Shown: positions 9,501 to 36,000 of the stretch, in pieces | Position numbering within the stretch: position 1 is the stretch's first letter | Layout: each line of letters opens with the position of its first letter | Assembly: GCA_030765585.1 (NCBI GenBank) | Contig: JAVCCJ010000121.1 | Location: 71,233 to 111,550 of the forward strand | Origin: Candidatus Zapsychrus exili | GTDB lineage: Bacteria; Omnitrophota; Gorgyraeia; Zapsychrales; Zapsychraceae | Length of the DNA: 40,318 nucleotides | Reading direction: 5' to 3' | Position numbers and translations under genes: made by a program | Notes under the pieces: model-generated | Told to the model about the DNA's origin: nothing | What the model saw: only the letters and a program-made list of their open reading frames with translations | The model's database searches: none

Positions 9501-9900
9501 CGGTTATCTATCAATCATTAGTTTATAATGCTTTTTCAACAGGTTTCCAGAAAGCTATGGTTAATAATGGAGATTATATTAAGACAGGACGTAGGCCAGG
9601 ACGCGACCACGTACATCCGTTTATGGATACAAAAGGAATAGAAGATCAAGGGCAACAAGATCTTTATTTCTTCTTAAATAAAGCTAATTTCCCTAAAGTT
9701 GTTTATGCCACTATTTTAGCTATAGTAGGTCTTTTCCTATGGCGATCATGGGGTAGCATTTGGTCGATTTTCCCTGTTCTTATGGTTTTTGCATCATTAA
9801 TGGCCCCAGTATTAATTAACCCTGGGTCTACGCCAGTTACAATTAGCACAAAAAGATGGTGGAAACAGCATAAAAGAGATGGTAAGAAGTTTGTTGAAAA
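5690..9900 (+). other. FKS1/callose synthase-like 1,3-beta-glucan synthase (GT48), spanning the frameshift
   Basis: Collinear motif matches to FKS/CalS consensus as recalled: FGFNEG (FGFQKD), HQNDVEAYF (NYDDLNEYF), AWNMIVRQYLLDDLIS (WNEIIxSFREEDLIS), RIKFFLSTLFMD (RISFFxNSLFMD), EWDNF, RLWLSFRYQPLARSIRGMM (RLWASYRGQTLxRTVRGMM), GKPMNQ at 8693 (GKPENQ), RGEIVQMMDMNQDMYLEE, RYHYGHPD at 8960, NEDIF with ED at 9041 (SEDIF), KGRE, KFGAGAGEQ, YIKTGR, APVLINP. Confidence 0.93.
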
Positions 9901-12900
9901 ACTTGGCAAAAATAGGATTATTCTTATAAGTGTTGCGTTTGCTTCAGTCTTTTTCATTGCTGGAGGTATTCCTTTCAAATTGATTTTTGCATTTGTGGGA
10001 TTATATTGGATATATAATGTGTCAAGAGAGGCTTTCGGAAAGAAATTTAAAGGGTCTAAGATGCATAAGTATGCAGAAGATTTAAATGGTTCAACTAGTT
10101 TAAGTTTCGCAGGAATAGCTACTATGTTCATTATGACTATTCTTGGAATTATTCTTACGCCTGTTGATTTAGTAATTCAACTTGCAACACGCATTTTCTC
10201 AGGTACAACATGGGCTAAGAATGTAAGAGCAAAAAGAATGGATAACAACGGAGATACTAAGGACGATTTAAGAGAAAGAGAAGTTGCAGCTGACATTAAT
10301 GCTATTAGAAGAGGATTTGCAAAGAAAAATCTAGAGCATTATATAAATAGCGACAATATTAGTGTTCTTTTAGAGCTACAAGGGGCTGTTAAAGGTCTAG
10401 ATGTTTATTTTCCTGGAGACAAAGAGTTTGTTGCGCCTAATAAACAAGCTAAGTCTGACCCAACACGTTCTTTACCAGGTACTACAATGCCTACAAAAGC
10501 CGAAGTTAATAAACATGATATAAGCAGATTTGAAGAGTTTGATGAGAGCTCAGAAGAAGTTAAGCGTACTGAACAAGCCTTACGCGCTAATGGCTATGCT
10601 GAGATGGCTGATCATTTAGTTTGGATGGCAAAAGCTGGTTTAGTGCGTGGCGGACCACTAGTAGGTTTCTTAGCAACTACTATTGTCATTCCTGCGCAGG
10701 CAGGAATCTCAGCAAAAGAATACGTCCTAATCTCTACAAATTATCCTACTTACAACACACTTACCGAAAGAGTATTAAGCTTAGCTCACGAAATAGGCGC
10801 AACAAGCAAGTTCAATCTATCTCATGAAGATAATACTATAAGAGAAGAAGCTATTAGTAAATGGCTTGTTTTGAACAAAACAATTAAAGCAAGCAAGTAT
10901 TACGAAAAAGCTAAAGATGTGTTACAGATTTCAATTGGAGTTTTAGTTTTAGTTGTTGGAGTAGCTGTTGGGGCTATAGGAACGGTAGGTTTCTTAGCTC
11001 TTTTAGGTCTTGGTGGATTTGTTTATTTAAGTAAAAAGATTTTTAGGCCGCTTGTAGGCGACATAACTTTTATCCGTGGCTGGAGGAAATTTAAGTCTCA
11101 AGCGGCTTCTTATTTTAATAAGGAGCTTGATGTAAAAACCAGATACGATTGGCTGTCATTCTTAGCTACTATTGCAATTGTTCTTGCCATTGATTATCTT
11201 CTTCATTTTGGAATTTCTATTGAAGGTCCTATAAATCAAGATAGTTTACTAGAAACTGTTTTGGCGTGGTGGAATCCTTTAAGAATATTAACTTTTTGGA
11301 TACTTTTCTTAGGAGCTTTTGTTTATAAAATGCCATTTGCTATTTTTTATGGGATATTCAACTTATCAACATTTTATATTTTCCCTGAGTCCTTTGCTGC
11401 TGGAACCTTTATGAGGAATTATGGTTATAATTTATTTTTTGATGTTATTCATTTCTCAACAGTATTATTAGTTGGTTATGAAACTTACAGCATAGTGCAA
11501 GACGATCTTAAACAAACAGGCTTTTATAAAGAGAAACTAGGGCCAGATTTCTTATATTCATTTAAGAAAATATCTATTTTTGCAATGTTTGCTTTAGCGT
11601 TTTTGACATTGGTTGAAATTGCGAAACCAGCCATTGAACCAATACATAAAATGTTTGTTTCTAGAGAAGCTGCTGATTTCTCTAGAGAGTTAACGGTCGA
11701 TATTGGCAATATTTTAGCTTATATGGGAGGTACTGTATTATCTGTAATCGTCTTAAATATATATTATCCAATATTTAAAGCAGTTGATCCCGTTGTTACT
11801 AGGACGATAAAACCTATTCATAGGTTTGCTCTTAAGAAGATTTATGGTAAGGAGTACGATACGGTTATGATTCAAAATTATTGGAGGAAATCATACGAAG
11901 ATGACGAAGAGAAAATTGGCAAAGGAGAAGGTTATAAAGTTGGAGATACAGTAGAGATTGATATAAAAAGTGGTGTAATGTCTCGCGTCGTAGAAGATGA
12001 TAAAGTTAAAGAAGATGCCCCTAATTCGTATCCAGCTCCATTTAGGCCAACAGATAGTGCGCAAAAAAGATATAAGGGCACTAGTTTTAAACTTTTAGCC
12101 GAACGTACAGCTCAAAAGAATCTTAGCTTTAAATTGATTGAAGGCTCTTTGAGCGAAGAACAGGAGGCTATTATTAGACAGATGTTTAATAAAATTCTTT
12201 GGCTTTCTCGTGCTCCTCCTGAATATAAATTTCATATTGTTTTCACTTCTGATTTTAAAGAAACGCAAAATTCTTTAGCAGCGTATCATTATTCAGATAA
12301 AATTCTTTATATTCATTTATTTGTTGTTGATAAATTAGTATCTTTATCGCAACCTGATCGGATTAAATTCCTAGTATTTTTAAAGAAAGTTGTTTTAAAG
12401 AACCATGAAATACATCATATAAAGGGAGAAGATGAACAAAAAGCTCAAAAGCTTACAATAGATTATTTCTTAGAAGATCTTGATGCAGCAGCCAATACGT
12501 TTAATTTGGTAAAAGAAAGAGCCATTTTTGAGCTTCGTTTTAGTAGAAGTTTCTTGAAGTTGATTCTTGAGCATAAGTCCTTGTACAGGGTTTTATCAGT
12601 TCAAAGAGCAAGCTTTAAGAGCGTTATTGTGAATTTTAATGTACCTGAAGTTTTTAGTGTTACAAAAACAAAGCCAACAAAAGTTATCCTTTCTTTAAAT
12701 AGTGTATTCTTACCTGTATTCTTAACTATTTCTTCAGATTCTACTTTCCCACTTTTAGTTAAAATGGGCGACAATTTAGTGTTTGTTATTGTCGCCGCAG
12801 CTGCTCTCTTAACCATTGGATATCTTATAAGTTATTTTGTTTATAGAAAAAATAAATCTTCTTCAAACATCGAGAATTCAGATGATACTAAAGACTCTCA

Positions 12901-14815
12901 TTTTGTTGTTGGACCTTTATTATTAGCAGATTATTCAGATGGGGCTGTTGAAGCTTCTGAAATATCTACGAAACAAAGAACAGATCGCATTATTGAAAGA
13001 GTCCAAGAAGGGGCTGAATCTTTTAAAGCAACGGGTAATATTAGCGATGTTGCAACATTGACCTCCTTACATAAGCAATTCTACGAAACTCAAGATCAGA
13101 GAGTTATTGCGTCATTAATCAATAAAAAGGTGATTATTAATACTTACAAAGGAAGGCTAGTTGATAGAAAGTCTTATGCGCGGTTTGCAGAAGATGATCT
13201 TATACGTCTTGTTTTAGATAAGCAGTCTAAGGTAAAAGAACATTTATTTGTAAAAGACTTTTCTGGGTACAAGAAAGGCAATGGTGTTTCTTTTGATTGC
13301 ATAGTACGAAAATATGATGATAGAGAAAGAATATCTTATGTTGCTTCAGAAGATATGGGTAAATTTGTTGAAGATGAAAAAGTTGTAGAAATTCTAACAA
13401 AAAAGAAATATGGCGCTAATAGAGTTTTTGTAGAGAAAGGACTTCTTAAAAGACTATTGACCAGAAAAAGTTTAGTTTTAGGGATATCATCTGAGACAGG
13501 CAATATAGTTTACCTTGATTCAAGATATGTCAATAGTAACCCATATCGTATTTTCAGACAAAATTGGCATATAAATAATATTTTAAAATATTTTGAGAAT
13601 GACAAAAGTGATCATTATAAACAACGGTTAAAAGATGCGTTTACTGTAGCGAGAACATTTTATGAAAAAGGTAGTAATACAGGTATTAAAAAGAAGAAGA
13701 GCAAAATTGTAGTAAAGCCTTTATTCAAGAATATGGACGAGGTCATTGAGTTTCTTTATGTAATAATCAATACTTTTGGAACTCAATATTCTGCAGATTT
13801 CTTTATTTCAGGTATTTTGTTAGGTCTTTCACAGGATTATTTAGGCGCTTTCTCTAAGGATAATATATTGAATACTATAAGAGCATCTCAGAGCGCATTA
13901 GCGCAGAACTTTGATACGGATGTTATGAAAAGTGATAATCGTTATGTAGATAAATATATGAAAATGATAATAAAGCAGTTTGATGAGAATTTAAATGCGT
14001 TACAGTTAACGGTCTTATATAAGTATTACGAATTTATTAATAACGAGAATGAAGACTTTGATTTATATAATGATGAGATAATTCTTATTTGGGTAAATAT
14101 AGCTGAAGCGATTAATTGGAAGACAATCGTTAAAGCTATAAAAGATTTTGTGGGTACAACAGATAATGAGGATATTATTAAAGTTAAATCAGAATATAAT
14201 AAAGCTATTGGTATGGCCGTAAAAGAGTTAAAGCAATTAATGATTAATATAAAAAATGAGCTTCAGGCAAGAATTAATGAAAAAGGAATAAAGGCAGAGG
14301 TAAAGATAGATGAAAAGGATTATCTTGGTATGGCTCGTGAAATTTACTTTTCAGATTCGCGCAAGGGAAGTGATAAGAAATATGAACATGTTTGGGATTT
14401 AGACGATTTAGCTCGCATGAGAATTGTTACTGATTCTGACGCTGATAATCTTCATCTGGAATATGATGCTTTGGCTATTGTTCTAGATTTTATGAAAAGC
14501 AAAGGCATTAAGTTTATAGGCAATGAAGATGCTCTTATTTATAAGAGAAAATATGGTTTTGAATCAAATGATACAATTTACCAATTAAATAAGCTATTAA
14601 GATTGGAAGTTCAGATTATGTCAAAAGATTCAGAAAATGAAGCAGATCATGGAAAGATAGGACGTGTTTCTTATGAATTAGGAGTTAGAGGGCAAAAGAC
14701 AGAAGATCCTGTATTCTTACCAAATATTAGTAAAGATGAAAGCTCAGAAAATCTTCTTAAGAACTTAAAAGAGTATGTAAAAGCGCACGATATTATAAAC
14801 AATATATATGTTTAA
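6485..14815 (+). CDS. Giant multidomain protein, segment 2: GT48 1,3-beta-glucan synthase, RGGP and RAPP/HExxH modules, TM bundles, RelA/SpoT synthetase-like domain
   Basis: Frame 2 is open from 6485 (after TGA at 6482) and reads KSKKQAIEKASINKILPKAYPDIK. The ORF-track TTG at 6530 has no clear Shine-Dalgarno. The segment ends at TAA 14813-14815 at the start of a TGS-like domain. Confidence 0.9.
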   Translation, partial: KSKKQAIEKASINKILPKAYPDIKTTKYGFLGWVRMISQFKWIFVVLHMTILLASFGASLTQPIHTVIANKELLVAALNNWYPYALVALGVIAFIQFVIWLINKKTKQKDLLENHWGDMVLPSEGRNKDRVEGTGARKTKSAFIMMTTLITKLIFNAYIFQWIAPGLQVLAESNWLVSWGGWALVAVPALFMLIVMLLDIFAYFYIVEGFLGYVLAKWEGVNRIKSWNRSAAGTALRNISIMTVIGLVIFIQPLDLSFGQWIIQNPVYNIAGFVVGGAVLLTVANIILKSFGISQIGGDTVSEMFEKAGKKFEENILPPSYVNRAGVRQILTGEQRKVAWAKAWNMIVRQYLLDDLISIEEAKMMIFVLGISGKDVSVDKDTSKLSEDELNSLAGIGPDKYDFLNGKIKRSPDLRNIKPRNKQVQSRIKFFLSTLFMDIDQTPVWERMYMLTTAMPQFEEVIMYPFSQYTVGEYDGLNSKYKTGHTFLTYFMNKHSLEWDNFRARLTREIEQEKDFIKKAKKKADLILLNNLKPGEKLGNYNPATLDYEMNSMDIQQEVRLWLSFRYQPLARSIRGMMNNRQMYVFLAKVNFPTTGSFINNKNEIESKIAKYKTQSYEQNIDEIVDAKYEFLPGLQIYGESKEAVVKNTEEGKSKYRFYKNYLIFNDANYLLKKYKHFKAAYLMIGKNKSGGVVRYAEEKPENKEDIFYEFSAEEGGGYIVRDSYMPLSSHPFSLQGKPMNQSNILRFARGEIVQMMDMNQDMYLEETFKAPSLMEEFRKQSRLAIVGYPEDIFTGVSSPAGAVHAYGDHTFSTLIQRVLDFAGVRYHYGHPDFVRAMSFKQLGLLSQPWVNEDIFGAYKGTLYGEKVINREIMQAAKGREGVYAGLLGISDKFGAGAGEQSVSFEISLHNTSSVIGFSRQFIHFVASIGYFIRKPLVVLQNNLYILTVVLFGISFFAAFPDELIFGLIGLLLSQAITATGYFQLVIENGFLRGTLKFMNVFPKAAVIYQSLVYNAFSTGFQKAMVNNGDYIKTGRRPGRDHVHPFMDTKGIEDQGQQDLYFFLNKANFPKVVYATILAIVGLFLWRSWGSIWSIFPVLMVFASLMAPVLINPGSTPVTISTKRWWKQHKRDGKKFVEKLGKNRIILISVAFASVFFIAGGIPFKLIFAFVGLYWIYNVSREAFGKKFKGSKMHKYAEDLNGSTSLSFAGIATMFIMTILGIILTPVDLVIQLATRIFSGTTWAKNVRAKRMDNNGDTKDDLREREVAADINAIRRGFAKKNLEHYINSDNISVLLELQGAVKGLDVYFPGDKEFVAPNKQAKSDPTRSLPGTTMPTKAEVNKHDISRFEEFDESSEEVKRTEQALRANGYAEMADHLVWMAKAGLVRGGPLVGFLATTIVIPAQAGISAKEYVLISTNYPTYNTLTERVLSLAHEIGATSKFNLSHEDNTIREEAISKWLVLNKTIKASKYYEKAKDVLQISIGVLVLVVGVAVGAIGTVGFLALLGLGGFVYLSKKIFRPLVGDITFIRGWRKFKSQAASYFNKELDVKTRYDWLSFLATIAIVLAIDYLLHFGISIEGPINQDSLLETVLAWWNPLRILTFWILFLGAFVYKMPFAIFYGIFNLSTFYIFPESFAAGTFMRNYGYNLFFDVIHFSTVLLVGYETYSIVQDDLKQTGFYKEKLGPDFLYSFKKISIFAMFALAFLTLVEIAKPAIEPIHKMFVSREAADFSRELTVDIGNILAYMGGTVLSVIVLNIYYPIFKAVDPVVTRTIKPIHRFALKKIYGKEYDTVMIQNYWRKSYEDDEEKIGKGEGYKVGDTVEIDIKSGVMSRVVEDDKVKEDAPNSYPAPFRPTDSAQKRYKGTSFKLLAERTAQKNLSFKLIEGSLSEEQEAIIRQMFNKILWLSRAPPEYKFHIVFTSDFKETQNSLAAYHYSDKILYIHLFVVDKLVSLSQPDRIKFLVFLKKVVLKNHEIHHIKGEDEQKAQKLTIDYFLEDLDAAANTFNLVKERAIFELRFSRSFLKLILEHKSLYRVLSVQRASFKSVIVNFNVPEVFSVTKTKPTKVILSLNSVFLPVFLTISSDSTFPLLVKMGDNLVFVIVAAAALLTIGYLISYFVYRKNKSSSNIENSDDTKDSHFVVGPLLLADYSDGAVEASEISTKQRTDRIIERVQEGAESFKATGNISDVATLTSLHKQFYETQDQRVIASLINKKVIINTYKGRLVDRKSYARFAEDDLIRLVLDKQSKVKEHLFVKDFSGYKKGNGVSFDCIVRKYDDRERISYVASEDMGKFVEDEKVVEILTKKKYGANRVFVEKGLLKRLLTRKSLVLGISSETGNIVYLDSRYVNSNPYRIFRQNWHINNILKYFENDKSDHYKQRLKDAFTVARTFYEKGSNTGIKKKKSKIVVKPLFKNMDEVIEFLYVIINTFGTQYSADFFISGILLGLSQDYLGAFSKDNILNTIRASQSALAQNFDTDVMKSDNRYVDKYMKMIIKQFDENLNALQLTVLYKYYEFINNENEDFDLYNDEIILIWVNIAEAINWKTIVKAIKDFVGTTDNEDIIKVKSEYNKAIGMAVKELKQLMINIKNELQARINEKGIKAEVKIDEKDYLGMAREIYFSDSRKGSDKKYEHVWDLDDLARMRIVTDSDADNLHLEYDALAIVLDFMKSKGIKFIGNEDALIYKRKYGFESNDTIYQLNKLLRLEVQIMSKDSENEADHGKIGRVSYELGVRGQKTEDPVFLPNISKDESSENLLKNLKEYVKAHDIINNIYV
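11380..11770 (+). other. Multi-TM domain, weakly VanZ-like
   Basis: FDVIHF...LVEIAKP...SRELTVDIGNILAYMGGTVL resembles the VanZ-like pattern (DKxxHF...E.xQ...R..D..D...N..G). Confidence 0.3.
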
Positions 14816-15000
14816 TTTAAGATTGGAGATGAAGGGGTTAATATTGTAACTTTGCCTGAAGGGTCTATTGTCGCTGATTTATTGGCACATTTTAGAGTTA
14901 ACTATTTTGGCAATAATGTAGAAATGAAAAGTCTAGAATCGTATAACAAACTTGGCTTAAGATCTGTTTTAAAAAATGGTCAATTAGTTTATATAAAGAA
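14200..15000 (+). other. RelA/SpoT (p)ppGpp synthetase-like domain plus TGS domain, interrupted by an in-frame TAA
   Basis: DLDDLARMRIV, KYGFESNDT, LEVQIMS, EADHG...SYE match the RSH synthetase motif order. Then IYV*FKIG...TLPEGSIVADL...LKNGQLVYI matches TGS (IYVFTPxG...LPxGATPxDF...LxNGDxVEI). Confidence 0.8.
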
Positions 15001-18000
15001 ATTGAGCGGCAAGATGCCAGGCATGAGTAGGTTGAAATATCATGATATGAAAAGCTATAGAGGAAAGTTGAAATGGACAGAATTTAGTAAGCCTTCTGAT
15101 AAAAAAGATGCAACAGTTAAAGGCAAACAAATGCTAGAGAAAGCTACTAAAGTTTTGTTTGCTGGCAAGAGAGAAAAAGAAAGATTGAGAATTTTATCTG
15201 ACGTTGTAAGTAAGATAGGGTTTAAATTCTCTGGGGCTAATGATTTGGCTGAGCTTTATAGGGCAATTTATTTTGAAGCATTAACAGTGGATGAAGCGTC
15301 AGATTTTATTGTGAAAGCACAAAATAAGATTAAAAGGTATATTCCTTATGCTGCAGGCGAAGAAGGAAAGGACGACAAGAAGACTAATATGAATGCGTTT
15401 AATCCTTTATTATTATTAGGTTTAAATAGTTTTGTTTCAGGTGAGATGTTGTTGGCTGTAGGTGTATTATCAATAATTGCAATTGTGGCATGGTTTGTAT
15501 TAAGAAGAAGCTCTCCTGCATTAAGCAATATTTCACGTCTTTTTATTTTGATATTCAAGAAAGCGCTACCTTATAAGTTTAATAAGGAAACGGCACATAA
15601 AAGAAGTATTGAGGGAGAAGATAATGTTATTAAAGATAAGTCATCTGAGAAATTTTCTAATATGTTTGATACCTCTGATAATTTACTTAGAGCTCTTGAT
15701 GATCAAGGTATTTATCGGTTAATTAGTTTGGTAAAACGCTTTAGAAAAGAAGCTTTGAATACGTTGCTTAGTCCTTTAAGCAGAGGCGATTTCTTCAGTC
15801 GTGTCAAAATAGCTGTCAGTAATTTTAAGTTTATGTCTCAACTTTCAGATAGTAAAGATAAAAAATATGGAGGTGTTAATTGGGATAGATGTATTTTGGC
15901 AACACTTTTCTGTAGCAATCTTGGTTTTATTGCGTTTGGAAAAGATGGAGAAGTTAAGCAAGAGTTTGAAGATATTGTTCAATGGGATTTTAAAAGAGAA
16001 AATAGAATCATTAAAAATACTGCTCCATATCTTTCTCTTGCGGGGCTTGAAACTTATCGTAGACAGTATATTTCAGACTTAAAACATGTTTATATTTCAG
16101 AATATATAGCTAGAACTAAGATTTTTGAGTCAAAATTGTTTAGAAATGTTTTTACAGAAAAAGAGAAAAAGATTATTAGTTTTCTTATTTGGTATCATCA
16201 TACGCTAATTGAGTTAGCTGGATATGGTGCTCTTAAGGATCAAGCAGATTTAAGTGTTATGCTTAGAGATATTTTAGACGTCTCAAATAGCACAGGATTA
16301 TCTAAAAAAGAATTATTGGATATGCTTTATGCTGCTACTTTGTCTGATTCTTTTTTAAAAGGAAAAACAAAAGCTGTTGGTCTTAACACAGCAGCTAAAA
16401 AGACAATGTTAGGAATAATAGATGTATTAAATGAAGAGTATACCGAGGATAGCGCTAGCATAGAAGTCGTTAAGAAATTATGTGAAGATAAAATATTAAA
16501 TCAAATAAGAGAGTTGCGATCAGAGCCAGACGCAATCTTTACAGAGCATCTTGCAGAGATGATAAAACACAAAACTTACGATGAGATAAGACCTCTTGTT
16601 GAAGCATATAAGCTTGCATCTTGGGGTTATTTTGGAGCGAGAAGACAAGAAAAGTTTGATTCATTAGAAGGCAAAAAAATGAGAAGGTCCGTTATTGTTC
16701 ACGCAGTAAGAACATTGCGTCATCATATTACCTATGATGTTGAGACAAATATAATAAAAATTCTTCATGATATCTTTGAAGATACAGAAATCCCAGAGGA
16801 AATTATAGAAGAAATATTTGGCAAAGACATTCTCTATTGTTTGCAATTATTAAATAAGAAGAGAATCGAAGCTAAATTATCCTTAGGCATAAAACTGTAT
16901 TTTATAGAGACAATATATAGATGGAAGCTTATAGCCAAGCAGCGCATGGATATATTCTATGAGAAGTATGGTTTTTATTATAATGAGAAACAATATGCAT
17001 ATTATATGGCAATTCTTTTTTCCTACGGAGGCTATAAAACACAATTAGCAAAGTGTGCTGATTTGGTAGATAATTTCTTAACTATTGCTGCCAAGCGGAA
17101 TAAAAGTGGACTATTAGCAAAATATGCAGGAATTGCAATACCGTTTATTATTGAGATGTCTATTTTGAATAAAGAAGATAAGCATGAATTTTTAAACAAT
17201 TTGCTTAAAGGCATAACAATCTTGTTAAAGCAAAGAGATATAGATGCAGGGCTTATTAAACAATGTGAACAGTTTAGAAAGACTGTTCATTATTATAGGA
17301 ATTTTATTGAAAATGATAGTAAGAAAATAGAATCTGTTTCGTTGATACAAAAGTTTCTTTATGGGAGAAGCAAAACTGTTAAATCTTTTATAAAGATATT
17401 TGGTATTGCTGTTCCACTTTTTAGCGTTTATGCAAGAAGGATTGTAAGGTATATATTGCCTTATATTTTCATTGATAATTTAAAGAAGGAGTATAGGTCG
17501 GATACTTTAGGTCGTACGCGAGTGCTTATTAAAGGAAATAGTCTTTATATAACAGGAAAACGCAGAATGCTCTGGATTTTATTGCGCTTTATAACAGTAT
17601 TTATTATAAATAAAACAATTAGGACTATATTTACAGGCGTTTTAGAAGAAAAAGACGTGTCTTATCTCTCTGTTAGGAAAATTAAGAAATCGCATAGAAG
17701 CATATTTGACGCTAACTTGTTGAGTGTGAGTCCTATTCTTTTATTGGATTCTAATTTCGTTATTTTAGCTGTAATCTTTTTTATATCTTACAGAATATTT
17801 AATCATTATTTAAGCAATGCGCCGCCTATAAAGGTAAAAGGTAAAAGGCAAAGTGTAAAAGATTATAAATTAAAGCCGTTAGAGCAAATAGTAATACAAT
17901 TCTTATCTGACTTATTCCGTGGCTGGTACCGCAGAATAAATTCTGCGTGGGGGAGGATAAGAATTTCTGCTCTAACGGTTTTTTCTTATGACAATAGGTT

Positions 18001-21000
18001 ACCTAGGGCTGTTGATTTTGCTCGTGAGAAACCAAATAGCACTTTACCAGACGATCCTATAGAAAGAGAATTTGCTGTACAACAAGAAATTCGAAGTACA
18101 AATACAGTTGCGTCTTTTGAGCTAAGTTATGTTAGAGATGCAATTAAGATATCTTTGGATATTGTTGGGCTTCATGATTCAGAAATACATCAGATACTTG
18201 TCAATATGTTGAGTCTTGAGATTCGTGCAGGTCCAATGAAAAATATTTATGGTGCATTTAAAGAGAATATTCTTTATCTTGATAAGACCCTCCTTAATCC
18301 TCGCAATTGGAAGAAATTAATAAAAACATTAATTCATGAAGCCGGAGTTCCTTTGGGTAGAAGCGATACTCAGAACGAAAAGTTTGCGTTTTCTTTTAAC
18401 GACAAGTTGAAAAAGAATCCTTTTAAGAATATTAGATATTATAAAAATTATCGAAAAATAGTTTCTTCTCTTAAGAAAATTGATATAGATATTAATTTTG
18501 CAAAGAATATTATTTGTAGTTTAGAATTGCCGTTATTTTTACAATTTAATCGTCTGTATTGGAACAGAGAATATCCAGAGAAGAGAATTTTAAGAGAAGA
18601 AATAGAAACCATGCAATGGTATATAAAAAGTTTCAAGAAATTAGAGTTATTGACCGTAGAAGCTGTAGAAGCCAAGTTGTTAAGAGATGTTAAAAAACAT
18701 GTAGGGGATGTTGCATATGAACAAACGAAGCGAGTTATTGATGGGATACGCAGTAAACACGAGGGGGTTGTTGGCAAAACATATAATAGACAAACTTTAA
18801 GATATGCCATTAAAGAGACTGCAAAAATAATATGTTTAACAAGGGTACAGTTAGAACGTCAAGAGAAGAGGGGCTTACTTTTTACTAAGTTTAATGTTAA
18901 GGGTAAGAACATAGATGAGTTGCCTATTATACCGATAGACAATAAAGGCAATATATTAGAGCATCTTCTTTTTTGGGCAAATGATTATGATAAAGTTCCT
19001 AATAGTGACTATTATCGTGCGCGTAAGATGTCTATAAGAGATTTGGCTTATGAAAAGTATAAAGATAGTCCTCAACAATTGAAGATATTGTTTGCCTTTT
19101 TAAAACCTCAGGTTACTTTTGCATCTGTATCTGCTCCTATATTTTTAATAGGCTTAGATCCAACTGTTTTGCTATTATCGGCAATTGTGGTGGCAATAGG
19201 TTTTGTAGTATTTAAACTTTTGAATAATAAGAGAAGCGACAATAAATTAGAAAAAGATGCTGGTATAAAAACTTATACAAATGTTACAAAACAATATACA
19301 GAAGACATTATTAAAGAAGCTGTTAGGCAGCAGAGAGACGCGCTTTTAGAAGCTTTGGTAAGACATAACGAGGGCACTGTGGGCTCGTTACCAAGAGAGC
19401 AAGATATTTTCTTTCTTCAAGATTTCTCAGGAGAAACAACACTTTCAGCAAGGGTTTTAGATAGTAAATGTGGAATAGTTCAGGAAGATTTATACAGACG
19501 ACTATCTATGTTAAAGGCATATGTTGACAATGGTACAGGAATAAAGATCTTTTTACATAATGCATTTAATATTTTCTTTACTAGGGGACATGCGTTTTTG
19601 GTTGTTTCAGATGGAAAAGAGATATTCCTAGTTGATACATCTTTTGAGCAATTTTTTGTTCTTAATAATGGAGATAAAAAAGAAAACGGATATGAAGGTT
19701 ATATTATTCGTACAAAGAAAGACAACGGCAGCTGGAAAAAGATAGCTTATGAATTAAGAGAAAAAGGCTATGTGCGTTTAACTCAAGAGTTCTTAGAGAT
19801 GTATGCTAGTATTTTGCGTCAAGAATATAATTTAACTAGAGAAGCAACAGTGGAAGACATGTTGGCTTCTGATCCATATTATTTACAATATGATGACTCA
19901 CGTCTTAAACAATGGCTAGGAGATGTTGTCGTTCCTCAATGGGCTAAAGATTATAGAATAGAGTTTCTTACAAATAGTTTGGCAGACGAAGCCGTTGTTC
20001 TTAATTCTTTTCTATTTCCTATTTCTTTAATTTTAGTTTTTGTATGTCTTTTTGTACAAAATGGTTCAGGAACAGAATTTGTTTATGATATCTTTGCTTG
20101 GATGCAGACATTGATAAGCTCTTCTTCTGAAGAAGTTTATTGCGCAGCATCCTTGTTGCTTGCTTCATTTGTATCGGGTAAAGATCCTGATTCATCAGAG
20201 GCTAATGAAATGGTATTAGATGCTTTAGAAGAAGCAGGTATAGATTTTACAAAATTAACATATGACAAATGGGCAACACTTTTAGCATTGGCTAATTCTT
20301 TAGATAAGAGCATTACAACGGATAGAGGAAAAATACGTTTTGAACAGTTTAAAAGAAGTATTAAAGATTTGTCGTCTATTGACATTGCTGTTGATGGAAG
20401 AGTATTGTTTGAGCACAAGGTAGCTAAAATTTCTAGAAGTAGGTTAGCATATTTCATAGGTAAGCCAGGTGAAATGGCAGCTGATCTACTTTTTGTTCAA
20501 GCACAAGCTAATATAAATAAAAATCAGTTTAATAAACCACGTGGATGGAAGATTGCGATTGTGATTGATTTGCCTCTTAAGAAGAGTGTTTTAGACGATA
20601 TAAAGAATAATTTAATAGCATTTGTTGAAAAAGACAAAAGGCTGTCTAATCTTAATGGTTTTATAAAAGATGGCAATGTTGAGGTGCTTGTAAGAAGTGA
20701 AAAGAATATTTCAGAAGATGTAAGTGACTTTTTGTATGATTTAAGTGATAGAAAAGGAACCATTATTGTAAAAGGTTTAAAAGACAGTAAATATTTAGAT
20801 TTGTTCAGCGCAAGAAGGTTCTACTTGTTAAGAGCAAAAGACAAAAAAGAAGCAGTTGTCTCGGGTGTTCTAAGAGGGGATGTTGTAATAGGATATATTC
20901 CTAGAAGATATAAAAATAGATTAGCGTTAGATAGAGAGACGTTAAGAAGCATTACATTATATAGAAATTTAAAATATTGGTTCCAAGTTTTACAAGACGA

Positions 21001-27000: not shown

Positions 27001-30000
27001 GGTAGTTATTCCTGGATATATATTAGGAAAAGATGGAGAAAAGATTGTCAAAGTAGGCGGTGTTGATATTAATGAATGTTGGAGTCTTGTGTTAGATGAT
27101 GAAACATCGTACGGTTCTACATTGTTGGTTGCTACATTTGCATTGGTTAGAAAAATGGGATTTTCTTGGCAGCGTATATTATCTGGAATAGTGCATGGTA
27201 AATTGGCTCGTGGATTACAACCTTTTGAGACAGGTTGGGATGAAGATGAAATTGGCGAAGTTAAAGAACCTAAATCTGAATATATTGATGAAGAAAAAGA
27301 ACATATGGCTCCAAGAGCTTTGTTTTCAACAAAATCTGTTAATTTGCCAGAAATATTTCCTGTTCAGCAAGAAATTCGTATTGGAAGCGCAATTGGTAAT
27401 TTATTAAGTAGTTTAGATAAGAGCGACAACGATGCATTGCCTTTTTATTCATTCATTATTCCTGCATTTTTGTTTATTTACATTGTGTTATTGTTCAGGT
27501 ATGTAATTTTATCAAGTTTTATGAGTCCAATTGAAAGAGTTAATGGTAAATGGCTAGATTATAGAATTGAATCACTAAAGAATAAGCTCGCTTGGATACA
27601 GAGATTATTCCATGCTCCACCTAAAACAGCTGCTACAACTGATGTTGCGACTGTCGCAACTCCTATTATTGCCACTATTATTACTTCTAACTCCGCTTCC
27701 AAAGTTGTTCCTGTAGTTGATGAAACCAAAAAAGAAAACGTTAATCAACCTTCTCTTCAAGTTCTTTCAATATGCTATCTTAATGTTTTTAGAAGTCGCA
27801 TATTAAGCATCTATTTTAGACGTTTATGGTATGAACATAATATATTTAATGCAACTGGTAGAAGAATTATATTCTTAGACAGAGGATTTGTTGCTGCTTC
27901 TTCTGATATCATTGAAAAAACTTGCGATCTTATTAGGTCATACTTACAAAGAGAAGAGAGTCCGCTTAAAGATGTATTGTTAGGACATTATTCTAAAGAT
28001 ATTAATAAAGTAGTAAAAATTCGCCCTAGAACAGTAAGCGAAAAGAATATTCTTGAATCTAATATTATACTTGTTGCAAAAGAAAGTCATAAAAGTGAGA
28101 TATTAAAGAAATATGGTCATATTTTAGATAAAAACAAACATATAAGAGTTTATCTTATTTCTGAATTCTTGCCAGAGACGCATTTCTTTTATAAGAAAGA
28201 TGTTCCAGATGTAGGAGAACATCCCGTAGTAGACGAGAAAGACGCAATTGTTGAATGGACACCTTATAAACTTCTTGAGCTTTATCAGCTTCTTGATTTT
28301 GATAATATTTTAAATCAGCTTAGTATAAAATTACCTAATGTGGAAGAGGCATTGTCTTTAAAAATAAAAGATTTCTGCGAAGACAATCAAGAGCTTCTTT
28401 GGAAAATAATGAGAGAAAAGTTGGCAGCAAATTCTTGGAGTATGCAAAAAAGAATAAAGGTAGGAAACATATGCGGGCCGTTCTCTTACATGTTAGCTAA
28501 AGTGTTATGCGCTGTCTTTGACGCTTCGCTTGTTGATATGAAGGATATTACATTTATGCCAGAGGGAGGCTTTGTTAGCGTAGATGGGAAGTATCGTCAG
28601 CATGCGTGGATTAACTTCTGCTATAAAGGAAAGCCACTGTTGATAATTGATCCTACGCGTTTTCAGTATGATGATAAATACAAGGATAAAATTCTTGTAG
28701 ATAATTACGATTTAGAAAAATACGGATATAGGCCTGCAGAAAATTATTTACGAGAACAGCTTGGAATAATAATGGAAGATGAGATTAACTTAGTAAAAAG
28801 CAATTATTTTAATATTGGAGACCAGCGTAAGAAAGGTAAATTAAATCTTAGAGAAGAGCTGCTATATCTTTTTGTATCATTTGAGTTTTTAGCAAATTCT
28901 CCGAACAAGATATTTGGTAGAAGACAAGTTTATTCTTATGGCTTAATCATTGAAGAGATGTTAAAGCAGGTCTCTCTTGAAGGCGACAATAGAGAAAAAG
29001 CCTTGTCTTATTTTGATAATAATTTAGCAGTTGATAATCCAGACTTTAATTGTTTTGTATTACCTGCGTTTTTACCATTATTAATTTCTTTTAATTTTGG
29101 TTTTGTGGAAGTGACAGTTGCTATGATTATTTTTGCATTGTTAATAGATGTTGCTACAGGTGCTATAACAACATTCATAGGACAGTTATTTGCAACACGT
29201 TTTGCTATAAGAAAATGGGATTATAAGTTTGCATTTAAAATGGGAATATGGGGTGCAACAGTCGGGGCGCAAATATATTTATTTTTTAATTTAATAAATT
29301 TAATAATTCCTGCAGAGATTGGACTTACAACTGAATTTATAAGGACTGTTTTATTAGGTGCTTTTGGAGTATTTGTTTTATTTGAATCTAATATTATTTC
29401 GTATTTGATAAGCAAGAAAGAAAACTCAATAAATGAAGAAGTAAATAAAATGATATCTTTAAGTTTGCAAGATAAAGCTAAAGAAATTAGAGAGTTTTTG
29501 CGAAATCCAAAAAATATTGATTGGGTGTTTATTATCGTTCCTTTAGGAGCTTTTAAAGATTTTCTTTCCCAAAGACTTGATAACGAGATTTTTTATATAA
29601 TTTCAGGAATGGTTATATTTATATTCCATCGTTTTATTTATGAGCGTACAAATTCCATAGTTGTTCCTTTTGTTAAAAAGACATTGAATCTAATTAGCCC
29701 TGCTAAAGATAAATCAGGCTTTATTTATGAGGAGCTTTATAAGAATGTGCAGATGGACCTTGTTCAAGTTAATGATAAAGTAGAGGCAGCTAATGTAGCA
29801 GCAGCACGCTTCTTCTATCATTTGCAACAATGGTTTAACGGAGAAGGCAAGAAAGATCTAGATGCTATGTTCACATTGATGCTTGCAACAGGTAATAGCC
29901 CTGAGATGGCTTATAAGAAAATAGCAGATGTACTTAATAGTTGGTACGCTGCCAAAACGCAGAAATGGTTAATAAAGAATGGCATAAACCTTACGGTAAA

Positions 30001-33000
30001 GCCTGATATGAGACGAGTCATAGCATTTCATTTAGATACTGTGATGCCTCAAAAGAGAACAGATTATTTTGCTTTTGTAAATATTATTAATAAATGGTGT
30101 GACAAATTTGGCATTCCAGAGAATCAAAGATATTTATGGTACGGAGACTTAAAAGTAGCAAAAGACGGCGAATTAAAACAAATGAGCGATACAGAATTCA
30201 AAGTGTTGATAGAAGATATAGACAATAGAGATTTGAAGGTAGAAGAGTTTAAAAGAGCCGCTTTAGTTGCAGAAGACTGCCAGTATAATTTCTTTACGGC
30301 AATGAAAATGCAACTTACTTTGTTATCAAGTAAATTGAATAGTTTAGGTGGTTCTAATTTAGTTTTTGGAAGCACAGGCCCATCTTATGAAGGAAAAGGT
30401 CATGTTGCTTTTGTTGAGTCAGGATATGGCGATAGACAGCACGCTTTTATGGGACTAGGAGAATATCATTTTGCAGCTTCTCAAGCGCCTCAAAATGGAG
30501 GATATTCTGACATAATTGGTAAATATGGATATTTAACTTTTGCTATACCAGAATTTGTTCAGAGAAAAGATGCAAATTTAATTTGGATCGTTCTTGATAA
30601 TAAGAAACGTAATACTGTGCTTAATATGGTTGAAGGTAATCATGGAATAGATGTTAATGAATATCCTGCTGTTGGTTTGCAAAAAAGTAATGGCATATTA
30701 ATAGTGGATAATGCATCAGCTTCTGAGTTGCTTCTGAATAAATATCCTTGGGACTTTAAAGTGTTTAAGAATAGAGATTGGGTTTTTAATTTAGGAAAGC
30801 AGTTGTTTATACGTACAAGTAAAAGATTAGGTGTTTTAGTTAAGGATTTGACAGAAGAACAGTTTATTAACGCTGAAGGATCGCATGGACTTATTAGAGA
30901 TATAAGAGAGAAAAATTTAAAGTCGCTTATTAGCTCAATGAGTTGGGATAGATGGAAAGAAGTTGTTATTTCTGGGTTGAACAAAAATATAAAGCTTTCT
31001 AAGCCTGAAGCATTTGCAAGAAAGGTATGGGGGAATAATTTTGTTGATGAAATAATAGTAGCTCGTAAAACAAAAGATGAGTTGCTTGAAGAAGAAACCC
31101 TGCTAACTGGAGACACTGAAGATTTTTATCCTAAATTAATGCAGGCGCAGGAAAGATTAATGAGATTGCAAAAGGTAGTGGTTCTAGCTGATCCACATCT
31201 TGATGATAGTTTCTTGGCTGATCCAGATATGTTTAAACAGCTTATTGAGGCAGAATTTATACGAGTATATTCTATTTGCGCGACAATAGGGTCAGAAGCA
31301 GTAAGCGATAAATTAATTAAAGAGATGCTTGAATATATATTGACTTGGGATCAAGAAAAGATTGATATTGCAAGAAGTTTAAATAGGCAAGGGGCGGCAA
31401 AGACTATATTGTTAATGGCGATTAAGAATTCAGAATCAAAGAGTTTACTCTCTTATAATGTTCGCTCTAAAATGACAGAGGCAGAGTGGGACTTGCGCAC
31501 ACAATTATTCTTTAATTATGTAGCTATAAAAATGTTAAAAGCAGAAGAATTAAAAGCTAAGGAAGAAGTTAGTTTAAGATTCAATTATCTATTAAAAAGT
31601 TTAGAAGATAAACCAAAATGGGGATATAAAGATGTTGCCTTGATAGGTAAAATGAAGGGCATTGTAAGAATTATTGAGAACAAGACAGCTATGCTATCTT
31701 GGGGAATTATGTACAAAGATATTTTTGACCCTCTAGAGCCTAGCTATTATGCTTCAGGTGTAAAGCTTGGTACGGCAAGTTTAAAAGATATAGATAGTAT
31801 AATGACAATAATGAAAATGATAATAGATAAGCATGGCAGGATAGATGTAGTTTTTGGTAATGGAGAAGGATTCCAAGATTATGGAACGCATGCAACGGTT
31901 GAGGCGACTGTTATTGCTGCTTTATTAAATTTTGTTGAAGAAAAAATAATTGATCCAGCTAAATTTAAATATATAACATATGCTGGTGTTTGGGAGAGAA
32001 CAAAAACAGAGGAAGCTAATTTAAGTATTGTTTATACAAAACGAGAGATAGAAGAGTTTAAAGAGAGATTTAGACAGCTTTATGTATCGCAAGCTCCAGC
32101 AGAAATACCTGATGCAGGACATGAACAATTAATACTTTTCTCTGAAGCTGTAGAGAGAAATGGGCTAAAGACTGCAGATGAATTAAAATCTATAATTGAG
32201 CTAGATTCTAAAGTCGTTAATATTTTAGATGAAGGCGGTATAGTTCTTAATTTTAGAATAAGAAACTTATCTGATAAAGATGTTAGAAGAGGTTTACAAG
32301 ATAAGGTTAACGAGCTTAATCATCTTCGCGGCATACTTAAACAAACAAGTTATGTAGCGCTTTATGGCGAGTTGCCAACCAACAATTTTCCTTTACCGAC
32401 GGACAATCTTCATAAAAATTTTGACCCACGAGGTAGCGCTATCTTTGCTGCACAGTTAATGAAGGATAAATCTATTCTTAATTCTCATGTCTGGCCGCTT
32501 ATGATTGTTGGTATGATTGGCAGCATGCCATTGTGGTTGGGTTATGTTGCAGTGGTATCAATATTGGCAGTTATTGTATTACGTTACATTAAAAATCGTT
32601 GGAGCATAGTTAAAACTAAACAAGAAATTATATTAAATGAGTTAGAAAATATAGTGTTTAAAGAAGGCGATGACGTAGCAGAATATTTAAGAGATGAATC
32701 GCGTATAAAAGGGAAGGCAGATAAGGTGTTTGTGCCTCGTGATTATATAGAGATAGAAAAGATTTTAAGAGAAGCAAATAGAAGAAAAGTTCCTGTTACT
32801 ATTTCTGGTGCACGTACTGGCTTGGTTGCGGCAGCTGTTCCAAATGATGGCTGGGTTATTAGTATGGAACGTATAAACGAAATTATAAAGATTAAAAAAA
32901 ATAAAGATGGCAATGCTGGAAGTATTGTTGTGGGAGCAGGCGCTAGATTAGGTGATATAAGAGAAGCGGCAGAAAATGAAGGTTTATTTTTCCCAGTTAA

Positions 33001-36000
33001 TCAAACAGAGGTTTCAGCAACTATGGGTGGAGCTATTAATACAAATGGTTCTGGAAGCTGGGTATTTAAATATGGTATAACAAGACAATACGTAAAATCC
33101 CTTAGCGTTGTCTTGGCAAATGGACAAGCTTTAAGAATTGATAGAGGAGAATATTTCTCTGACAAGCAGGGATATTTTAGGATTCCTTCATCAAATGGAA
33201 AGAGATTAAGATTAAAAGCTCCTAGCTACAAAATGCCTTCCGTCCGCAGTTCTGCGGGATATTATTCAAAAGAAAATATGGATTTAATCGATTTATTTAT
33301 TGGTTCAGAAGGAACTTTAGGAGTAATAGTACAAGCTGAGCTAGAGCTTATTAAAAAGCCTGAAAATATTTTAACCGCTTTAATATTCTATGAAGAAATA
33401 AAAGATGCACTTGCTTTTGTTAGTCAAGCCAAGAATATATCCCGCGCCAATTGGAAAGGCAAGCCTAATAATTTCTCATTACGCGCTATTGAGTATATAG
33501 ATATATCAGCTCTTAGATATTTAGAGGACACGAAATATAGCGGAATTATTCCTGCTTGGGTTTTTGATAATAATGGCGAGAATCCTTGTGCTATTTTAGT
33601 TGAGCAGGAATTACCGAAAGATGTAGATCTTAATAATATTTATGATAATAGCGAAGTTGATCAGCTCTTATCTTTAATAGGAGAAGGTCGTCTAGATGAT
33701 ACTATTGTCGCAGATCCAAAGGATATTTTATCATATAGGCGAATAGTTGATTTCCGAGCCGTAATTCCTAAGACAATAAATGATAAGAGTAATGTAAAAA
33801 TAGAAAAGATGGGAACAGACTTAATAGTTCCTGAAGATAGAATAGAGGAATTTTTGTTGTTTGCTATTGCAGCACTCAAAATGTCTGGCACGCAATATGC
33901 TATTTGGGGACATATTAGCGAAGCGCAACTGCATATTAATCTTATACCTAAAAATGCGCAAGAACGTCAATGGGCAATAAAAGATTATGATCAGCTTGTA
34001 GCTGAAGTTGTGGATATGGGCGGAAGTGTTGCAGCCGAGCACGGAATAGGGAAATTAAAGCATAGATATTTAGAAATGATGTATGGCAAAGAAGCTATTG
34101 ATCAAATGTTAGCGGTCAAACTTGTTTTAGACGAGAATATGATATTAGGAAAAAATAACATATTCTCAAACAACGGAGACGATATAAGTAGAGCTTTAAT
34201 GCTTAATTTGGATCATAGAGCAGCAAAAAAAGTAGGTATTATAAAAGAGAAATCTAAAGGGAAAAGATATGTTGTTGCCAAGTCTCAACTTATTGAATTA
34301 ATTGAAAATTATGTAAGAATTGGCGCAGAAGAAGATAGAAAAATAGAACTTTTAAGCAAAATGGAGTCTATTGTCGAGAAACATCCAAGTCTTTATTTAA
34401 ATATTATATCAAGATATATGCTGGAGATAGATCGATTTGCTCGCAATGTTTTAAGTGAGTTAGTCCATAAGCTTTTAGTAAGTGGATCTGATGCACTTAC
34501 CCCAGATGTTTTAGAATTGATGCGAAAAGGATTTGTTTTAAGCCTTACTCGAGCTCAGAGACATAATCTGCAAGTAACAATAGAAGAAGCAGTCGAACAG
34601 TATTCAGATAAAGTTGGAACTAGTTCTATTCCTTTAGTGCTGAACTATTACGTTCTTATAAATGATAAAGAACGTGCTGTTAAGGACTTCCCTTATCTAT
34701 TAAATATAGTTTTATCTAGCCAAGATAAAGAAAATGTTTTTATATCAGAAATTCGCATGTCTAATGTAATTGAAGTAGCGCCTGAATTATTTGATGATAT
34801 CGTTTCTTCTTATATAAAAGAAACAAATCCTACCATTAAAGAGAAGTTAAGCGATGCCATTGCTTCAAATTTTAAAGAATTTATGCTGGAGACTAGCGCA
34901 GATAGGCATATTTTAAAATATTTAGATTATTTAAGAAGAAATGCGAAAAGTGATATAGAAAAGATAAACTTTGTAAAATGTATATTAAATATAACAAACT
35001 ATGATACAGAAAAAACTTCTGATATAGATAGTTTGATGATTTTGATAGATTCTGTTTATGATTCTGCTATACCATCTTTAAGCAATGAGTCTTTGATGCT
35101 GACAATCTCCAATTTGACTGACTCGATAGGTTCTTCTAATATTCCTTTAAGAGTTTACGAAAGAATAAAGGGGATTAAAACAGATAGTCAAGAACAAGAG
35201 TTTATTAAGTCTAGGATATTGTCTGAGGCAGATAATGGTGTTAATAAAAACAATGCTGTGCTTTATTCATTCGTTCCTTTATTTATGATATTTGCATTAG
35301 TCTCCCCAATAGTTGAATTTGTTAATAGTTGGATAATTAGTAATCCTGCCTTAATTATATGGACCCCAATAGTTGTTGGTGGAGCTTTTGGAACGTTCTT
35401 AAGGGTTAAGATGTCAGATCATATAGGTCAAAAGCTTAGCAGAATTTTCCCATACGGAACTTTAATTGTTAATTTGTTGGGAACTTTTATTTTAGGTTTT
35501 GTAATTGGTACTGTAAGAGCAGGGCAAGGCTTTGTTCCTGTTTGGGTTGTAGCTGGATTCTTGGGAGCATTTACTACATTCTCAACATTTATATTAGAGA
35601 GATATAATTTAGTAAAAGATAAAAAGAGCAAGAACGCATTAATATATATAGTTGCAAGTATTATCGGTGGATATATATTATTTGCAAATGGCAAAATATT
35701 TGGAACATTAAGTTTTGACAAAGGCTTTAATATGTATATTTTGGCCTTATCTTTAATAGTGCCTGTAGCTGTTCTTAAGGCTATAGGCTTAAGGTTAAGA
35801 GAGCTAGTTAGAGATATTTTTAGCTCTATTAAGTTAAAAGAACTACTTGCACTATTAACAGGTGGAATGTTGGGTGCTTTCTTGCGAGTTTGGTTGTCGT
35901 CCTTTACGGAAGAACCGTTCTTTGTAAATATTATTGGTGCATTCTTTATAGGGGTATTTGTTGTTCTTCTTAAAAATACTATTTTAAGAAAGTTATTCTT

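Follow-up and report, generated by a model that had tools for sequence, protein, structure and literature searches.

A recurrent peptide signal at module borders of giant Omnitrophota proteins likely marks sites of cutting into membrane-anchored pieces

Whether the giant proteins of the bacterial phylum Omnitrophota work as single chains or as cut pieces is an open question. In the accessible part of their preprint, West-Roberts et al. (10.1101/2023.11.21.568195) proposed proteolysis of giants by C39 or S8 domains, could not locate the cut points, which stayed unknown, and named their absence as what blocked analysis. Here we describe a junction motif in a 40,318-nucleotide stretch of Candidatus Zapsychrus exili (assembly GCA_030765585.1, contig JAVCCJ010000121.1, positions 71,233 to 111,550; hereafter the window, G000:C24:71233-111550, where G000 denotes this genome). 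The motif, a short peptide signal followed by a hydrophobic run, recurs at module borders, and sequence comparison indicates that it likely marks where giants are cut into membrane-anchored pieces. In the explanation that we favour with moderate confidence, the signal is probably a protease site at cassette borders, cut before the hydrophobic run so that each downstream cassette keeps an anchor of its own. The motif thereby supplies exact candidate bonds in 12 genomes. Below, coordinates of window copies follow window numbering, G0xx handles denote the genomes compared and Lxxx handles denote slices of giant open reading frames (ORFs) from relatives; many of these slices span only part of a giant.

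A sequence-only reading of the window had quoted eleven peptides, nine main copies and two weaker ones, and all eleven are present on the plus strand and in frame. Those at 12695 and 12896 belong to an ORF of 2,761 aa, and the remaining nine to an ORF of 7,882 aa. The motif reads [LFM]-x-[S/C/A]↓[F/V/H]-x-(x)-P and then a hydrophobic run, the arrow standing for the putative bond; the main copies are internal, lying 180 to ~6,800 residues into their ORFs. Leave-one-out analysis of the main copies found five of the nine (19118, 20000, 27443, 29045 and 35261) to be strong, with at most 0.27 such matches expected in 10.6k residues, and four not strong, with 1.5–4.5 expected. A second profile was seeded on the giant of G042 and iterated over relatives with G000 sequence excluded. 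Its best score within ±16 residues fell on the quoted register in eight of the nine copies, the failure being 17717, and five of nine outscored at least 98.5% of 1,620 helix starts in ordinary G000 proteins (Mann-Whitney p=2.8e-4 for window copies against those starts). Among 624,063 residues of G000 frames, this profile ranked 29045, 35261 and 20000 at 2, 7 and 14. Reciprocally, a profile built on the window peaked at offset 0 in 28 of 42 G042 sites.

The junction motif proposed by the sequence-only reading is thus real at eight of its nine main copies; it is a protein-level signal at cassette borders that is stronger than ordinary transmembrane helix starts and recurs in related giants, so it withstands the refuting condition that came with that reading. 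The two weaker copies fared differently: the one at 36728 is borderline (score 1 to 3), and the one at 12896 is unsupported by the profile (score -2 to -4). The pattern as first written proved too narrow, since a loose version of it matched nothing in 21 relative ORF slices and once in the next 24, and a regular expression of that style found 12 matches in G000 of which nine were the training copies, making the count circular.

A word count independent of the motif pointed the same way. In slices of giant ORFs taken from 27 relatives, 681,738 residues in all, the top words ahead of 676 entry helices were G-C-F, C-F-I and L-G-C, and these stem from G042. The form [GSAC]-F-x-x-P preceded 30 of the 676 relative helices versus 12.5±2.7 in block shuffles, compared with 7 of 272 versus 5.5±2.2 in small G000 proteins. 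The seeds were 42 copies, in the 85,816-residue frame of G042, of [DE]-x-L-[GA]-[CA]↓F-x-x-P followed by a hydrophobic run, and iteration over relatives without G000 raised the set to 128 sites, 75 in G042 and 39 in G046.

Several other models transferred less well. A hidden Markov model (HMM) built on the window only gave no match at E≤0.001 in 60 relatives. The window profile at score ≥8 to 12 was no more frequent in relatives' giants than in small G000 proteins, and at score ≥14 it occurred 13 times in 680k residues of the former versus 5 in 556k of the latter. A G042-only model included two of the nine window copies among its 42 listed matches (ranks 23 and 27). Four training sites of the relative set came from G020 and G026 slices picked by a weak match to the window-built profile. 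The converged profile contains false positives, such as residue 395 of L070 (G026), inside a block conserved in G001, and its matches in G012, G054 and G057 look like ordinary helix starts.

The anatomy of the relative copies is narrow in the head and free in the run. Position -3 is hydrophobic in 122 of 130 sites, -1 is G/A/S/C in 127, +1 is Phe in 97 and Pro stands at +3/+4 in 90. With training on G042 only and the column in question blanked, other genomes still returned A/S/G/C at -1 (33/39), L/V/I/F at -3 (31/38) and Phe at +1 (20/36), so the residue classes are not a profile artefact. Behind the head, the run is ~7 to 60 residues long (median 18), and this spread argues against a fixed structural part. 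The narrow classes in a polar linker suggest a protease site. In the window, the small-residue position is Ser or Cys in eight of nine copies and likewise Ser or Ala in eight of nine, six of nine copies have at least 15 uncharged residues from +1, and most copies are of a long form, with a short segment, a second helix and a basic tail. Motif spacing is 294 to 2,481 residues in the window, and its median in relatives is 598.

The prominence of Ser and Cys invites the idea of a nucleophile or lipid-attachment site, through acyl-shift self-cleavage or a lipoprotein-like modification, and Cys also occupies -1 in 28 of the 42 G042 seeds. Ala, which cannot serve either chemistry, is the commonest residue there among relatives (57/128), and the lipobox or acyl-shift rule is thereby refuted for the Ala copies; overall we regard this idea as hardly credible. 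Codon usage bears on another alternative, that the junction is a relic of gene growth which no longer serves any purpose as protein, being either a duplicated anchor-coding piece or a DNA recombination site. Recent internal duplicates in G026 and repeated tails in G042 would fit it. Conserved positions nevertheless use varied synonymous codons: position -3 in G042 draws on all six Leu codons, both Cys and both Phe codons occur, and the window Ser is encoded by AGT as well as TCN. The signal is hence read as protein, and a unit of domain accretion at the DNA level, as once suggested for this motif, does not agree with it. Since the pattern is also retained over 7 families while adjacent residues diverge, a relic is very unlikely.

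By profile match, the motif occurs in the giants of 12 genomes, which represent 7 families within a single order. When an HMM built from 51 sites was searched against 168 genomes of that order, giant frames with new matches turned up in G043, G053, G067, G072, G079, G064, G045 and G052, and slices from the first seven show clear copies; the earlier carriers are G000, G020, G026 (one copy), G042 and G046. Among the 34 genomes with slices, often partial, 16 have a match at score ≥14 and 18 have none. Across 401 genomes of the phylum, no frame of more than 1,084 aa outside the order gave a match (E≤0.05) to this HMM, which is insensitive and detects two window copies at that level.

The motif lies at module borders. 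None of 109 sites in G042 and G046 falls inside blocks homologous to giants of other genomes (15.8±3.6 expected), and 30 adjoin such blocks (8.4±2.7 expected); neither value was reached in 5,000 shuffles. Against Pfam domains, 0 of 38 G042 sites lie inside (3.5 expected, p=0.022) and 8 of 38 adjoin (3.2 expected, p=0.011). Searching the window cassettes by BLAST gave seven matches covering five of the ten cassettes. Residues 27–2469 of the 2,481-residue cassette between 20000 and 27443 align at 45% identity to a block in a 21,496-aa frame of G048, a genome of a different family. Three G048 orthologs, those of the cassettes ending at 17717, 19118 and 27443, end at Ser-Ser-Ser-[V/A] seams, a word found seven times in that G048 slice versus 0.8 expected, and the G020 module orthologous to the cassette behind 29045 is itself preceded by the window motif. 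Sequence homology thus indicates that the motif bounds mobile cassettes, one with several enzymes, and that it exchanges with two other junction types, the Ser-Ser-Ser seams of G048 and prepilin-type sites in G001 and G026. The image of enzyme domains as beads on a string, each between two motifs, is right about the marked borders and overstated otherwise, given the uneven spacing and the longest cassette (2,481 residues), in which HAD, phosphoribosyltransferase and PRPP-synthetase domains are not separated by any motif.

Other lineage-specific words are repeated in giants. S-S-P-[VIL] occurs 28 times versus 1 expected in G032 (L025, L026, L126), S-S-S-[VAI] recurs in G048 (L060) and G064, and N-[AS]-A-[VM] recurs in G047 (L061), G057 (L141) and L001; forms mixed with the window motif are seen in G048 (L039, residue 1058) and G064. 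G000 itself has a second junction code, 42 D-x-A-M words in eight long proteins (C80, C97, C39, C83, C103, C34, C13 and C119), with A/T/S/G two places past Met in 38 of the 42.

Exchange at the same joints bears on the most serious competitor of proteolysis, an uncut membrane tether. Here a re-entrant or hairpin anchor, its head capping the membrane entry or docking on a partner, would hold the huge chain along the inner membrane. A hydrophobic, often Pro/Gly-rich run stands behind every copy, two segments plus a basic tail are common among the window copies, and the border statistics are explained without a protease. Inner-membrane-anchored cytoplasmic domains are also the reading given to nearly half of long proteins in the available part of a 2026 preprint (10.64898/2026.06.07.730766). 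A tether nevertheless leaves three things unaccounted for: orthologous modules in G048 end at fully soluble Ser-Ser-Ser seams, where an anchor is evidently not needed; the prepilin-type sites of G001 and G026 keep Gly at -1, Phe at +1 and Glu at +5 in 14 of 14 cases; and the -3/-1/+1 classes are strict next to a run of free length. We prefer a cut over an uncut chain because of the exchange with soluble seams and the Glu+5 sites, the border statistics being neutral, and consider the tether possible although rather unlikely.

How the favoured cut might proceed can be put together as follows. The cut would be made at the cytoplasmic face, after the small residue (Ser/Cys/Ala) and before the Phe next to it, so that every cassette downstream would begin with a hydrophobic anchor of its own. 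We infer cutting itself, and we place the scissile bond by reference to the Gly↓Phe prepilin-type sites, which occupy the equivalent position; the cytoplasmic side is suggested by the cargo, ordinary cytoplasmic enzymes, and by the basic residues behind the helix in most window copies. An enzyme can only be guessed: an A24 prepilin peptidase with relaxed specificity is a tentative choice, and some other protease, for which the giants' own C39-like head or zincin-like modules would be candidates, a still more tentative one. The processing or anchoring role suggested earlier is accordingly worded as plausible here, with processing ranked first on comparative grounds; release of each single cargo did not stand, as one cassette holds several enzymes. 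A signal-peptidase-like site in the class I sense is also at odds with the anatomy, in which the conserved head precedes the hydrophobic run and does not follow it.

An export function was weighed as well. In a serial export signal, the head cut would free the previous cargo, the run would restart secretion and signal peptidase I would release the next cargo outside the cytoplasm. Short runs do look like signal-peptide cores, a second loose word, [F/L/W]-[G/A]-x-[V/I/M], closes the run in 80 of 129 relative copies, and G000 has further multi-enzyme proteins with D-x-A-M joints. A/S/G follows two residues past the Val position in just 27 of those 80, however, the G042 flanks upstream of the motif are acidic rather than basic, and the basic cluster behind most window helices points to cytoplasmic cargo. 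Serial export is therefore improbable.

The link to a named enzyme comes from a sister genus. In G001 and G026, which form one genus of the same family, internal sites of the form polar-[G/A]↓[F/Y]-hydrophobic have Glu at +5 in 14 of 14 cases, a residue that was not part of the rule by which they were selected. Giants with the Gly↓Phe-x-x-x-Glu form are L053, L070 and L071 (G026), L167–L169 (G001) and L095 at residue 2145 (G163). A two-helix anchor stands behind each site, and in G001 and G026 the second helix mostly has a basic tail. Comparable sites in other giants (59) show no Glu+5 bias, and none of the Glu+5 type was found in 582k residues of ordinary G000 proteins. A profile of 15 internal prepilin-type sites matched 157 of 168 genomes, its non-giant matches, among those listed, being mostly pilin-sized frames, and three sub-threshold matches to PF07963 fall within G026 giant frames. 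One helix with its tail is duplicated in G026 and carries a head of the window type in one copy (L-H-S↓H-A-W-P, cf. window 32477) and of the prepilin type in the other, the duplicated anchor scoring 145 versus 51 for the best match outside G026 (1,616 helix windows); G046 has Gly↓Phe-x-Leu-Pro intermediates alongside its 39 motif copies. The giants of G001 and G026 are thus a cleaner test case than the window for internal cutting by prepilin peptidase, and their sites point to a named, easily expressed candidate enzyme.

G000 carries a single A24 prepilin peptidase gene (272 aa, contig C72). Its N_methyl pilins have Gly at -1 in 10 of 14 and Ala in 4 of 14, and there are also Ala↓Gln Tad pilins, so this peptidase must already accept Ala at -1. 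PF07963 gave 15 matches in G000 at E≤1, none of them on the window contig. As described in the part of the literature available to us, prepilins are cleaved behind their Gly, at the cytoplasmic side and ahead of the hydrophobic tract, Glu5 is dispensable for processing and many prepilin peptidases are promiscuous (PMC4471445). The PilFind rule, [GAS]-x4-[DE], applies near the N-terminus, usually within 35 residues, in the consulted part of its source (PMC3244431). On this footing the window motif may work like a class III signal. One fuller version, to which we give a distinctly lower probability than to cutting as such, treats the giants as polyproteins with dozens of class III-like sites inside the chain, at which prepilin peptidase would cut, and the window motif as a drifted form. 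One gene would then yield a series of membrane-anchored enzymes, possibly N-methylated and possibly handled by the pilus machine, and lineages would swap the cut code for soluble seams at the same joints.

Several observations weigh against this enzyme or against cutting in general. None of the nine window copies has Gly at -1, the residue called "absolutely critical" for prepilin processing in the same partly available source (PMC4471445), or Glu at +5; among the 130 relative sites, 13 have this Gly and one has this Glu. The hydrophobic -3 of the motif occurs in 0 of 14 G000 pilins. As far as its residues tell, the window motif fails the strict class III test and so is not filed as a class III signal, and this is why prepilin peptidase is a leading but doubtful candidate. 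No extra A24 peptidase was found in G000, G020, G026, G042 or G046, and no extra S26 peptidase in G000, G042 or G046. The Glu+5 type is limited to one genus plus single cases, and the direct tie between the two heads is one duplicated cassette in one genome. The border statistics would be the same for any linker-borne anchor, cut or uncut; in 30 of 129 relative copies the run, at 15 residues or fewer, is short for crossing a membrane; a profile built from the soluble D-x-A-M and N-x-A-[V/M] junctions failed to pick out the window-motif register; and the compared genomes are kin, so that counts across them are not independent.

The nine main junctions, all on the plus strand, differ in detail. 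Junction 1 (L-N-S↓V-F-L-P, 12695..12844) has a short hydrophobic run, a second helix and basic residues, its register correct and its score low; the cut would fall between 12703 and 12704. Junction 2 (M-N-A↓F-N-P, 15389..15499) has a 34-residue hydrophobic block with a basic tail and beats 99.2% of controls. Junction 3 (L-L-S↓V-S-P, 17717..17800), the one that fails the relative-trained profile, and junction 4 (F-A-S↓V-S-A-P, 19118..19219), with a helix and basic tail, stand where orthologous G048 modules end at a Ser-Ser-Ser seam. Junction 5 (L-N-S↓F-L-F-P, 20000..20179) has two hydrophobic patches, and junction 6 (F-Y-S↓F-I-I-P, 27443..27532) beats 98.5% of controls. Junction 7 (F-N-C↓F-V-L-P, 29045..29206) is the top-scoring copy. 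Junction 8 (L-N-S↓H-V-W-P, 32477..32581) has a helix and basic tail and a head nearly identical to one in G026, and junction 9 (L-Y-S↓F-V-P, 35261..35407) precedes the first CrcB/Fluc match. The borderline copy, at 36728..36860, stands before a helix.

The window contains, in order, the end of a 3,548-aa frame, the 2,761-aa ORF (6530..14815, +), the 7,882-aa ORF (14852..38500, +) and a 509-aa ORF. Within the 2,761-aa ORF lie a glucan-synthase module (PF02364, 7739-9340, +), a membrane region, two zincin-like modules, junction 1 and a weak RelA/SpoT-like tail; the glucan-synthase module has one named relative, from an Omnitrophota record, at 39% identity. The 7,882-aa protein, a cargo array with eight main junction motifs, has 18 predicted hydrophobic segments and HAD, phosphoribosyltransferase, PRPP-synthetase, GlcD and CrcB domains (Pfam, NCBIfam). 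Its multi-enzyme cassette (20087..27415, +) includes the HAD domain at 22679-23470, the phosphoribosyltransferase domain at 24080-24289 and the PRPP-synthetase N-domain at 26438-26671, all on the plus strand. A GlcD-type FAD oxidase (32720-34147, +) lies downstream of junction 8, and the first of two CrcB/Fluc matches (35369-35692, +) begins ~33 residues after junction 9; these fluoride-channel matches form a tandem pair at 35369-36200. A His-Ser-Gln/Lys-rich short-period repeat is present at 37900-38200, near the C-terminus.

The 2,761-aa and 7,882-aa ORFs share one frame and are separated by a single TAA at 14813-14815, just past the weak RelA/SpoT match (E=0.0024). The sequence that follows, without a Pfam match, seems to resemble a TGS domain. 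A public contig across 14187-15390 does not differ from the window, though both may derive from one sample. The glucan-synthase module (residue ~13,270) and the motif array of G046 share one frame, with the first motif site at residue 13,625, right behind the module as in the window. Relatives also carry counterparts of the window's first two ORFs within one frame, and the break at the overlap of these two may reflect either misassembly or a true frameshift; in one public contig, of depth 3.4, letters are missing from A-runs at 6488-6491, just ahead of the overlap. Upstream, the contig carries a 9,937-aa frame that bears the conserved head of giant proteins, as well as a group of Tad-type pilin genes. 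The C39-like head homologue lies at G000:C24:37541-38608 (E=1.4e-70) and is found in 114 of 168 genomes of the order.

For the zincin-like module, the first atlas match was 0.90 with 96 shared features, the low-confidence model had a predicted local distance difference test score (pLDDT) of 59.7 and the best PDB matches were to selecase (E 0.11-0.55, not significant); as a protease, the modelled module is a lead only. The module (R-[AG]-[PG]-P, later H-E) has four window copies, at 3319, 10646, 12209 and 18224, of which only the one just upstream of junction 12695, in the module at 12080-12649, keeps an intact HExxH, and the word occurs 118 times over all slices.

These results suggest that many of the transmembrane helices counted in giants are junction anchors, in which case whole-chain topology calls would change. 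The motif also provides a rule for splitting giants into modules for annotation. The 2026 preprint, in its accessible text, reports Omnitrophota giant genes of up to 147,155 codons and handles giants as whole chains, without the words "motif" or "cleav" (10.64898/2026.06.07.730766), and the part of Seymour et al. 2023 that was available contains neither "cleav" nor "prepilin" (PMC10066038). In the accessible text of both giant-protein papers (10.1101/2023.11.21.568195; 10.64898/2026.06.07.730766), no junction motif is described and "polyprotein" is absent; the word "motif" occurs once in that of the 2023 paper. No prior description of the motif was found in the literature searched, which lay outside most subscription papers, Kizina et al. 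2022 and the supplements of both preprints.

Compared with known systems, the motif partly resembles sorting signals such as LPxTG, PEP-CTERM and GlyGly-CTERM, which combine a short motif, a hydrophobic helix and a basic cluster and are single and C-terminal. The window motif shares this motif, helix and basic cluster and differs in being internal, repeated and of other sequence; among the matches listed, the window's two ORFs have no NCBIfam match of this type. With the Omnitrophota giant multi-enzyme proteins ("Archaeovorins"), as the available parts of both preprints describe them (10.1101/2023.11.21.568195; 10.64898/2026.06.07.730766), the window shares a very long ORF, hydrophobic segments and unrelated enzymes, and its contig shares the C39-like head upstream and adjoining Tad/secretion genes. 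Class III (type IV prepilin) signals, processed by A24/PilD enzymes (PF07963, PF01478; PMC4471445 and PMC3244431, both seen in part), have the same polar stretch, small residue, Phe and hydrophobic run and the same cytoplasmic-side cut ahead of the run that we propose here, and their full Gly↓Phe-x-x-x-Glu form is present inside the G001 and G026 giants. Unlike them, the window motif is internal and repeated rather than N-terminal, has Ser/Cys/Ala instead of Gly at -1, Leu at -3 and Pro at +3/+4 without Glu+5, and leads into a hairpin or short run with a cytoplasmic-type enzyme behind it, where a prepilin has its pilin domain; PF07963 has no match in the window. As had been noted at the outset, the motif belongs to no named family, but prepilin-type sites, a named kind, take its role in the sister genus. 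In viral polyproteins, and in mitochondrial tandem precursors such as Arg5,6, several proteins likewise lie in one frame with a short recurring joint site, and in Arg5,6, as described in the accessible part of that work, a signal-processing enzyme is reused internally, an analogy for a role of prepilin peptidase (PMC8734313). The cut and its enzyme are proven there and proposed here, and the window joints also bear a membrane-seeking run; what the giants have in common with polyproteins is a recurring site at the borders of self-contained proteins.

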